From the NCBI GenBank assembly GCA_028534125.1, contig CM052841.1, forward strand, positions 24,428,001-24,492,000: 64,000 bases of DNA, read 5' to 3'. This document shows positions 46,085-63,409 of this stretch, in pieces. Position 1 is the stretch's first letter; each line of letters begins with the position of its first letter. A model generated the notes under the pieces. The model saw only the letters and a program-made list of their open reading frames with translations. It had not been told where the DNA came from and ran no database searches. Origin of the DNA: Lama glama (taxonomy: Eukaryota). A program made the translations under genes and the position numbers.

Positions 46085-46308
46085 TCACTTGAGGGTCTTG
46101 CTGAGGTTGGAGAAGCCAATGCCAACACATGTCATTAGNNNNNNNNNNNNNNNNNNNNNNNNNNNNNNNNNNNNNNNNNNNNNNNNNNNNNNNNNNNNNN
46201 NNNNNNNNNNNNNNNNNNNNNNNNNNNNNNNNNNNNNNNNNNNNNNNNNNNNNNNNNNNNNNNNNNNNNNNNNNNNNNNNNNNNNNNNNNNNNNNNAGGA
46301 ATTCGATT
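46085..46308 (-). CDS. RCL1: RCL1 terminal coding exon (exon 9 equivalent), interrupted by an N gap
   Basis: 46138-46085 reads CTA ATG ACA TGT GTT GGC ATT GGC TTC TCC AAC CTC AGC AAG ACC CTC AAG TGA = LMTCVGIGFSNLSKTLK*, the RCL1 C-terminus. On the other side of the gap, 46307-46297 reads ATC GAA TTC CT = IEF(L), the expected exon start. The 5' boundary is uncertain. Confidence 0.88.
46139..46296. other. assembly gap (158 N) inside the RCL1 last exon
   Basis: Run of N. Confidence 1.
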
Positions 46309-52818: not shown

Positions 52819-52963
52819 NNNNNNNNNNNNNNNNNNNNNNNNNNNNNNNNNNNNNNNNNNNNNNNNNNNNNNNNNNNNNNNNNNNNNNNNNNNNNNNNNN
52901 NNNNNNNNNNNNNNNNNNNNNNNNNNNNNNNNNNNNNNNNNNNNNNNNNNNNNNNNNNNNNNN
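52819..52963. other. assembly gap (145 N)
   Basis: Run of N. Confidence 1.
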
Positions 52964-53597: not shown

Positions 53598-53676
53598 ACC
53601 ACCATTCTTCAGTTATCACAGTACTGTACCTTTCAGATATACAGCATCGGTACCATGATAACCGAAAAAGGACAGT
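53598..53676 (-). ncRNA. MIR101-2: microRNA precursor mir-101-2 (mature miR-101-3p 53608-53628; 5p arm 53644-53665)
   Basis: Minus strand ACTGTCCTTTTTCGGTTATCATGGTACCGATGCTGTATATCTGAAAGGTACAGTACTGTGATAACTGAAGAATGGTGGT folds as a hairpin and contains UACAGUACUGUGAUAACUGAA. It is sense-oriented in the last RCL1 intron, as known for MIR101-2. Confidence 0.98.
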
Positions 53677-54369: not shown

Positions 54370-54473
54370 GTGTAGGGAGAGAGCGGACCAAGGAGGACTT
54401 TGGAAACATCCTGCTGTCCAAGGGTCATGAGCAGCAGAGCCAGGCTTTGGTTGGTCGAGTCCACACATCCACC
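54370..54473 (-). CDS. RCL1: RCL1 coding exon (exon 8 equivalent), 104 nt
   Basis: tttatag|GGT GGA TGT GTG...CCC TAC AC|gtgagt, encoding GGCVDSTNQSLALLLMTLGQQDVSKVLLGPLSPY(T). Phase 0 start, phase 2 end. Not in the ORF track; read by hand. Confidence 0.97.
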
Positions 54474-57685: not shown

Positions 57686-57777
57686 GGGGGTGGGGTATAG
57701 CTCAGTGGTAGAGTGCATGCTTAGAATGTGTGAGGTCCTGGGTTAAATCACCAGTACCCCCATTAAAAAAAAAAAAA
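57686..57777 (+). mobile_element. short tRNA-Ala-derived SINE (tRNA head plus poly(A)), antisense in RCL1 intron 7
   Basis: GGGGGTGGGGTATAGCTCAGTGGTAGAGTGCATGCTTAG...GGGTTAAATCACCAGTACCCCC followed by an A tract. Short flanking repeat AAATTAC at 57677-57683 and 57775-57781. Confidence 0.85.
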
Positions 57778-58530: not shown

Positions 58531-59394
58531 CTCCTAAAGCATGAATTATCAGGCAGCTTCACCTTATTTCTCTTGCCAACATCTCTCCTTCTCCCCGAGT
58601 TCTTCCTTGCTTATTTGGAGTCACCTCAACTATCTCTGGGAAACAGAGTAAAGTGTGTGTGTGCAGATGTGCATATTGCTCATACAGATCAGAAGAGAAA
58701 GAACTGTGGCAACTGAGGACTGGTCGGGCCAGGCTGGCCTGAGCTGTGTTCCACCAGCGGAGTTGCAGAAGTAAAGCAGTAAGTGGTGCATCTGGCCTTC
58801 AGCATTGTGTCACCTTTTCTTTGTCCCATGTTCTCATCTTCCCAAGCTCCCTACCATGCTAACACAGGCCTGACTTTCCCAGACATACTTCTGTGCTCCA
58901 GAACACCCTGTAAAATCTAGCCCGTTGACACTGTTTCCCATCTGAATTAACTGTCACATGCAAATCCAGACTTCCAGCTTCTTCAAAAATGTGAAAAGCA
59001 TGAGCCCCCACTGACCTATGGCAATGAATGGAGGGCTGAGAGACGGTATCTGCTTTGATCAGGATGGTGTGTGCTCTTCAATTGGCCAGTCTCCATCTAA
59101 CATGCTTCATTTTTACCTTCTCTCTCCTGTATAACACTGTTTCGGTTCTTTGCCCTCCCAACTGAAACTTACCTGCCCTGTGTCCCACACCAGTGGGAAT
59201 AGATCTCTGCTCATTGGCTCGTTTAGCCAACCCATTAAACTAGTTAATGCTAAATTGTTTAAAGGGTAGGAACAGGTTAATTCCTTGACTGAAGAGCTTG
59301 GAAGAGGAAGAAAGTTGCTAACAAATAAAAATGAGAGACAAGGAACTGCTTTCTGGTGGCTCCCCTCCCAGACCTGCAGAGGCTGAGGACATAC

Positions 59395-59551
59395 CCTATA
59401 GATTTCTTCGAGCAGCAGCTTGGCACAGTTCCTGCCGAGGTCCTCGGGAAGCACTGCTGCTCCCTGGCCCTGGGGGTTGGAGGCCAGTTCAGCACTGAGG
59501 AAGGTGCCGTTGGTGGTCTCAGCAACCAGAGACAGCCCAAAGCCCGGAGAC
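59395..59551 (-). CDS. RCL1: RCL1 coding exon (exon 7 equivalent), 157 nt
   Basis: ctccag|G TCT CCG GGC TTT...ATC TAT AGG|gtatgt, encoding SPGFGLSLVAETTNGTFLSAELASNPQGQGAAVLPEDLGRNCAKLLLEEIYR. Continues the previous exon in frame (AA+G = Lys). Confidence 0.97.
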
Positions 59552-59633
59552 CTGGAGATTCAAAGGCACAGACACTGAGTAGCACTAATGAACTGGAGAT
59601 TCAAAGGCACAGACACTGAGTAGCACTAATTAA
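59552..59633. repeat. 41-bp tandem duplication covering the RCL1 exon-7 splice acceptor
   Basis: CTGGAGATTCAAAGGCACAGACACTGAGTAGCACTAAT occurs at 59552-59589 and 59593-59630; 40 of 41 bases are identical over the period. Confidence 0.97.
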
Positions 59634-59899
59634 GTCGGGTTCACATTCATCAGTAAAAAAAAAGAAAAGAGAAAAAACATCTTTCTGTTGGTACTCTCTC
59701 TGGTTACTTCAGGCCTTACTAGAGTTCCTACTCGCTTCCTCTGGAATTGTACGTGATGCAGTGAGGGCACACATGGCCAAACAGAAGGAAGTACAAATTT
59801 GCTTTTCCTATTAGCCCTCCCTTCCCCCACTTCCTACACTGTAAAAGATCCTACTGTGGGAGTCTGTAACAATCAACACTGACAGCAACACTAACAAGG

Positions 59900-63283: not shown

Positions 63284-63409
63284 TTCCCAGAATTGACTCC
63301 TTTCATGTGGTCTGTGTAGATATAGATATCGGGTATAAACTTGTTGAGGATGCTCCTTGCAGAATCCACAATACGGTTTGCCATTTGAGGTGAGACACGA
63401 ACTGAATAC
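63284..63409 (-). CDS. RCL1: RCL1 coding exon (human exon 6 equivalent), 126 nt
   Basis: Minus strand ttgtag|G TAT TCA GTT CGT...TCT GGG AA|gtaagt, encoding YSVRVSPQMANRIVDSARSILNKFIPDIYIYTDHMKGVNSGK, which matches mammalian RCL1. Canonical AG/GT, phase 2 at both ends. Upstream exons are outside the window. Confidence 0.97.

Follow-up and report, generated by a model that had tools for sequence, protein, structure and literature searches.

In the Lama glama assembly, the final 41 bases of intron 6 in RCL1 are doubled by a 41-nt tandem duplication with a 38-nt identical core, which places a second copy of the exon 7 acceptor upstream of the canonical one. On balance, this is probably a real, young and tolerated duplication, with minor leakage to the upstream site that is removed by NMD. 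It most likely reflects a slip in copying and not a regulatory switch.

RCL1 gene structure in the window

Using tblastn with a mammalian RCL1 query, exons 6 to 9 were placed inside the window (the whole stretch of DNA analyzed, 64,000 nt in length) and exons 1 to 5 in the 60 kb beyond it. This placement, together with an Rfam match for the miR-101 precursor (RF00253, 96.3 bits) at 53600..53674 on the minus strand, within intron 8, bore out the first-pass annotation in its naming of the gene as RCL1 and of the intronic microRNA as miR-101. The exons in the window lie on the minus strand and comprise exon 6 (63284..63409; 126 nt), whose donor opens intron 6, exon 7 (59395..59551; 157 nt), which is in frame with exons 6 and 8, the penultimate exon 8 (54370..54473; 104 nt), and the last coding exon, exon 9, of which the 3' part is readable (46085..46138) while its start lies under N. 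Intron 6 is 3732 nt in length to the canonical acceptor. When exons 1 to 8 were joined via the downstream AG, the resulting 323 aa had no differences from a Camelus RCL1 protein (P0149).

P0149, which is annotated as isoform X3, ends two residues past exon 8, and this end implies a putative alternative last exon in intron 8, near miR-101. The N-terminal extension of another Camelus protein, P0223, matches the intron-5 read-through of the window. In intron 5 (extended coordinate ~74770 to 63410, minus strand), the donor is of the U12 type, GTATCCTT, and a CCTTAAC branch motif lies 13 to 15 nt before the exon 6 acceptor. RCL1 appears among the human genes with U12 introns (PMC1874599), and intron 5, which directly precedes intron 6, is likely of the minor class judging by these motifs. 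A tRNA-Ser-like match at 57691-57762 (plus strand) had 29 other matches, at 75 to 93%, in 719 kb and is therefore a dispersed repeat, likely a tRNA-derived SINE.

In the assembly, a 41-nt tandem duplication covers the exon 7 acceptor

The tandem doubling of the exon 7 acceptor, described at first pass as having a 41-nt period and one mismatch, is present in the assembly according to both TRF (array 59552-59630; period 41, 1.9 copies, 100% matches) and a direct comparison of the units. The upstream repeat unit, copy 1 (59593..59633, minus strand), ends in the extra acceptor, with AG at 59594-59593 and T as the next base (CAG/T), whereas the downstream unit, copy 2 (59552..59592, minus strand), ends in the canonical acceptor, with AG at 59553-59552 (CAG/G). 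The third base is the sole difference between the 41-nt units 59593-59633 and 59552-59592; it falls within the first three bases of copy 2 (59592-59590), which double as positions E+1 to +3 of the upstream site, a point absent from the first-pass annotation. Chance does not account for an exact repeat of 38 nt at 41-nt spacing, as the maximum at periods of 25 to 100 was 11 nt when the 5 kb around it was resampled 100 times under a Markov model. An estimate of age from one mismatch in 41 was set aside as uninformative. With 1.9 copies, the arrangement is distinct from a minisatellite or VNTR, which has several copies in variable number, and it is also distinct from a NAGNAG acceptor, in which the AGs are 3 nt apart and the frame is kept, as the RCL1 AGs are 41 nt apart and the frame is shifted.

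To place the duplication against a background rate, near-perfect two-copy duplications with a period of 25 to 100 were sought across 718,918 bases from this genome (the window, 60 kb beside it and 60 other 10-kb stretches). Three others were found, with periods of 32, 50 and 38 (L019:8406-8464, L021:1336-1429 and L055:6490-6564, respectively), corresponding to 4.2 per Mb (95% range, 0.9 to 12). For the genome-wide extrapolation ~190,000 acceptors were assumed; the number of human U2 introns has been given as 183,089 (PMC12081236). Before selection, ~30 (7 to 93) duplications per genome would cover an acceptor AG and ~5 (1 to 16) would end within 3 nt of it. Thus, at ~4 per Mb, a few duplications ending at acceptors are expected per mammalian genome. 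No published account of a duplicated RCL1 acceptor was found in a literature search that was not directed at camelids.

Real duplication or assembly artifact

The assembly comprises 1,072,352 contigs, which lends some weight to an artifact in which the animal has one copy that was written twice by the assembler. However, there is no gap nearby: the closest N, at 52963, is 6.6 kb from the duplication, and the next 60 kb upstream are without N. A second, single-copy haplotig was not found in the own-genome search. Exact copying of the flanks yields TTA, GTA or GTC at the junction and never the observed TTC, so a substitution is needed under any exact-copy model. The spacer would be explained by any one of three single changes: copy 2 may have undergone A>C, copy 1 may have undergone C>A, or the upstream E+1 may have changed by G>T. 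Furthermore, the similar duplications elsewhere in the genome (L019, L021 and L055) have decayed, natural-looking, part-matching edges, which also argues against an artifact.

Sequencing runs were compared with the locus by the share of short words that they contained. Fourteen DNA runs, the best obtained, spanning five organism labels and six studies (one of which may be the source of the assembly), all stopped at 0.97 of 60 sampled words, a share that leaves approximately two words missing and fits either one or two copies. From the 571 query words, 33 are specific to the two-copy state and 8 occur twice. Under random sampling, the probability that at least three junction words were among the 60 is P = 0.70, whereupon a share of 0.97 means that the runs hold the junction, whereas exactly two would be sampled with P = 0.19, and all of the runs may then lack it. 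The 8 doubly occurring words could also give 58 of 60. The share of 0.97 suggests one of three situations: a duplication shared across the labels, one private to an unlisted animal, or an artifact. The sequence leans toward a real duplication, and we regard the artifact as improbable.

The two acceptors differ at the first exon base

The two acceptors were initially described as identical, which is correct for the intron side, where 38 bases are common to both, but not for the exon side, where the first exon base (E+1) is T upstream and G downstream (CAG/TTC versus CAG/GTC). Each unit contains a branch-point candidate (at -25), a tract (13 pyrimidines in -24 to -5) and CAG, and at the upstream and downstream acceptors alike the longest pyrimidine run is 5, with 15 pyrimidines in the last 25 nt. 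The intron 6 tract is weak in comparison with those at exons 2 to 5, where runs of 9 to 14 are present. The best branch-point candidate for the canonical acceptor (59575..59581, minus strand; A at -25), a motif match only, scores 5/7 against the branch-point consensus, and the same motif lies at -25 of the upstream acceptor.

The single mismatch does lie in a branch-point-like yUnAy motif, as first noted, but it falls on a free position of that motif. As both versions fit yUnAy and the higher-scoring candidate at -25 is common to both copies, the mismatch was rejected as a branch-point switch. Masking of one site by RNA structure was also rejected, as the differences in local unpairing were small and opposite in direction for the tract (0.39 upstream, 0.53 downstream) and the CAG (0.47 upstream, 0.30 downstream). 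Separately, at 59649-59678 (minus strand), 58 nt above the upstream acceptor, a T/C tract of 24 nt precedes a branch-point-like TACTGAT; this tract-then-branch order is the reverse of the usual branch-then-tract arrangement.

Published rules were used to predict which acceptor would be chosen. Sites with runs under 10 to 15 pyrimidines are described as needing G at E+1 for U2AF35, and loss of this G impairs them (Fu et al. 2011, PMC3105431). A variant survey gave the order of preference at E+1 as G>A=C>T and reported that splicing was altered in 66.7% of 96 losses of an E+1 G, although tract length was no help in classifying the E+1 variants of that study (PMC12081236). For tandem acceptors in reporter libraries that varied -15 to +3 together and not E+1 alone, no first-come preference was reported, and the stronger site dominated (Mikl et al. 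2019, PMC6783452). Because the longest pyrimidine run is just 5 and the site would lean on the reading of AG/G by U2AF35, we infer that the original acceptor wins, and the upstream RCL1 acceptor is accordingly predicted to lose to it. Exon sequence adjoining a duplicated splice site is also said to favor that site, as reportedly found by Reed and Maniatis in 1986. Some features could favor the upstream site instead: the upstream copy has two additional TNA candidates (-38 and -39) and a longer AG-free stretch, from -36 to -60, and the original acceptor is now preceded by an additional AG at -43.

The base at E+1 also bears on how the spacer arose. In one scenario, the duplicated segment would initially have extended past the acceptor to include three exon bases, so that two identical CAG/GTC sites frameshifted approximately half of an essential mRNA, and G>T at the upstream E+1 would then have disarmed the copy, with the repaired allele spreading in a camelid lineage. 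This sequence of events is doubtful in our estimation. If it were true, single-copy relatives should have TTA, not TTC, at -41 to -39, and the copy should be present in all five organism labels; the locus would then be a natural, fixed test of how far the choice between acceptors that are alike in all other respects depends on a single exon base.

Predicted consequences of upstream acceptor use

Use of the upstream AG would enlarge exon 7 from 157 to 198 nt and shift the frame after residue 236, giving a product of 318 aa that ends at the TGA at 54427-54425 (54425..54427, minus strand). This stop is 55 nt before the exon 8 donor, which is the last junction under the 9-exon layout, the start of exon 9 being under N. 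The frameshift, the stop and its distance were all part of the first-pass annotation, and the arithmetic held when recomputed. An ORF at 59277-59585 corresponds to the shifted frame of exon 7 and was rejected as a coding feature, as no listed protein continues into that frame. Plain skipping of exon 7 leads to the same shifted frame and the same TGA; thus, the stop owes its position at the NMD boundary to exon 8, was not made by the duplication and is no sign of tuning.

In a mutational scan of two genes, RNA was ~30% of the wild-type level with a stop at -54 and ~100% at -42 (bioRxiv 10.64898/2026.03.24.714003). Given such a graded window, from -54 to -42, transcripts with a stop at -55 are likely still mostly degraded. 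The C-terminal part that would be lost aligns with yeast Rcl1 C277 and R327 (from an alignment in which positions were counted by hand), residues that contact Bms1 (PMC4150785). RCL1 that is defective in BMS1 binding is reported to be degraded, the stability of RCL1 depending on BMS1 (PMC11023236).

The stop also raises regulated unproductive splicing (AS-NMD), in which an acceptor switch would tune RCL1 while miR-101 output is kept. Splicing of this kind occurs in ribosome and RNA-processing genes, and an alternative acceptor at RCL1 would resemble these cases in giving a premature stop in the penultimate exon. The usual position for such a stop is at least 50 to 55 nt before the last junction, and the 55 nt at RCL1 is borderline, at the NMD-competent edge of the graded window (bioRxiv 10.64898/2026.03.24.714003); the location of miR-101 within intron 8 is also as this explanation would have it. 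However, exon-7 skipping meets the same stop, the copy is young (38/38 identical), no sign of use, of conservation or of a regulator was seen, and chance alone yields ~5 (1 to 16) such duplications per genome before selection. Regulation by this switch is therefore very improbable.

Signs of upstream acceptor use

Among 253 listed RCL1 proteins (120 listed of 261 matches to an exon-6 peptide, plus the members of 10 clusters), none had the shifted exon-7 tail, a weak negative result as NMD targets are seldom annotated as proteins. Fourteen of the 253 depart otherwise from the canonical start of exon 7 or end there, and the anchor motif was missing in 2 of the first 120 listed. Four camelid proteins use the downstream site, but all are named as Camelus and possibly come from animals without the duplication. 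Word shares in RNA runs (six rows) ranged from 0.13 to 0.45, and one share of 0.23 equals the exon-only expectation of 127/571, from a host that possibly lacks the duplication; these rows were left out of the interpretation.

When the genome was searched with the stretch from the window, the sole match besides the locus itself was on C24, where a processed RCL1 pseudogene (~29,482,730-29,483,840) comprising exons 1 to 9 contains stops and frameshifts and has 69 to 92% identity per exon. It joins exon 6 directly to the downstream site, which indicates that the downstream site is ancestral. At that level of identity, the pseudogene is too old to be evidence of present use and was rejected as such.

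The earlier suggestion that RCL1 mRNA is diverted to NMD or to a truncated protein was thus unsupported, as 0 of the 253 listed proteins were shifted and the upstream E+1 is T, the least favored base. A larger effect was nevertheless considered, namely, a real duplication with 10 to 50% of transcripts going to the upstream site or to induced exon-7 skipping, and an unregulated lowering of RCL1 mRNA that is tolerated via BMS1 buffering. The 38 identical intronic bases, the additional TNA candidates of the upstream copy and its cleaner AG-free stretch are consistent with such mis-splicing, and a duplicated acceptor has disturbed splicing in USH2A, where an acceptor-spanning duplication gave 60.9% of reads skipping the exon and 1.8% with upstream use (PMC11311777). 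Stability of RCL1 that depends on BMS1 could, in addition, hide a loss of mRNA (PMC11023236). T at E+1 on a short tract and the want of a shifted protein among those listed argue against it, as does the importance of RCL1, a ribosome biogenesis gene that is essential in yeast and needed for organ development in zebrafish. We consider mis-splicing on this scale unlikely, though not negligible.

Under the preferred explanation, a tolerated duplication with a minor leak, the original acceptor would outcompete the upstream copy through the reading of AG/G by U2AF35 at a short tract. The small share of transcripts spliced upstream or skipping exon 7 would meet the exon 8 TGA and be mostly removed by NMD, and any 318-aa protein that escaped would be without the BMS1-contact residues. 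Overall, RCL1 would be lost to a small extent or not at all, and it would not be regulated in this way.

Comparison with known duplicated splice sites

If the duplication is real and fixed, RCL1, a gene intolerant of mis-splicing, offers a natural pair of acceptors with 38 intronic bases in common and a different first exon base. Such a pair would help in the calibration of splice predictors and in the interpretation of clinical duplications at exon borders. Greater weight would be warranted only if an appreciable fraction of transcripts is spliced to the upstream site or if the T turns out to have arisen later as a repair.

Several known systems resemble this arrangement in part. Engineered tandem 3' sites, with acceptors 2 to 59 nt apart, likewise compete by strength (PMC6783452), and in AG-dependent acceptors, sites with a short tract likewise require a G at the E+1 position (Fu et al. 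2011, PMC3105431). However, both are reporter constructs in human cells, and duplication of a full unit differing only at E+1 was not among the cases found in these reports. In the USH2A variant c.3812-3_3837dup, a tandem duplication also copies the acceptor AG, and splicing to the first copy results in a stop; in contrast to RCL1, 3 intronic and 26 exonic bases are copied, the second AG is without a tract, and exon skipping is dominant (PMC11311777). At RCL1, the copy comprises the complete branch-tract-AG unit, and the original acceptor still has a tract and an exon start of its own.

Cases such as that of RCL1 should arise a few times in each mammalian genome. The closest natural precedent found is the minisatellite of F7 (PMC1557585). 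In intron 7 of that gene, a 37-bp minisatellite contains identical 5' pseudo-sites that are described as silent (PMC1557585). In both genes, a natural tandem repeat over an exon-intron border sets identical splice sites beside the real one, and the copies in F7 are normally silent. The two differ in that the F7 repeat concerns a donor, has several repeats, is a VNTR and follows a first-come rule, whereas in RCL1 an acceptor has been doubled once, and acceptors are chosen without a preference for order.
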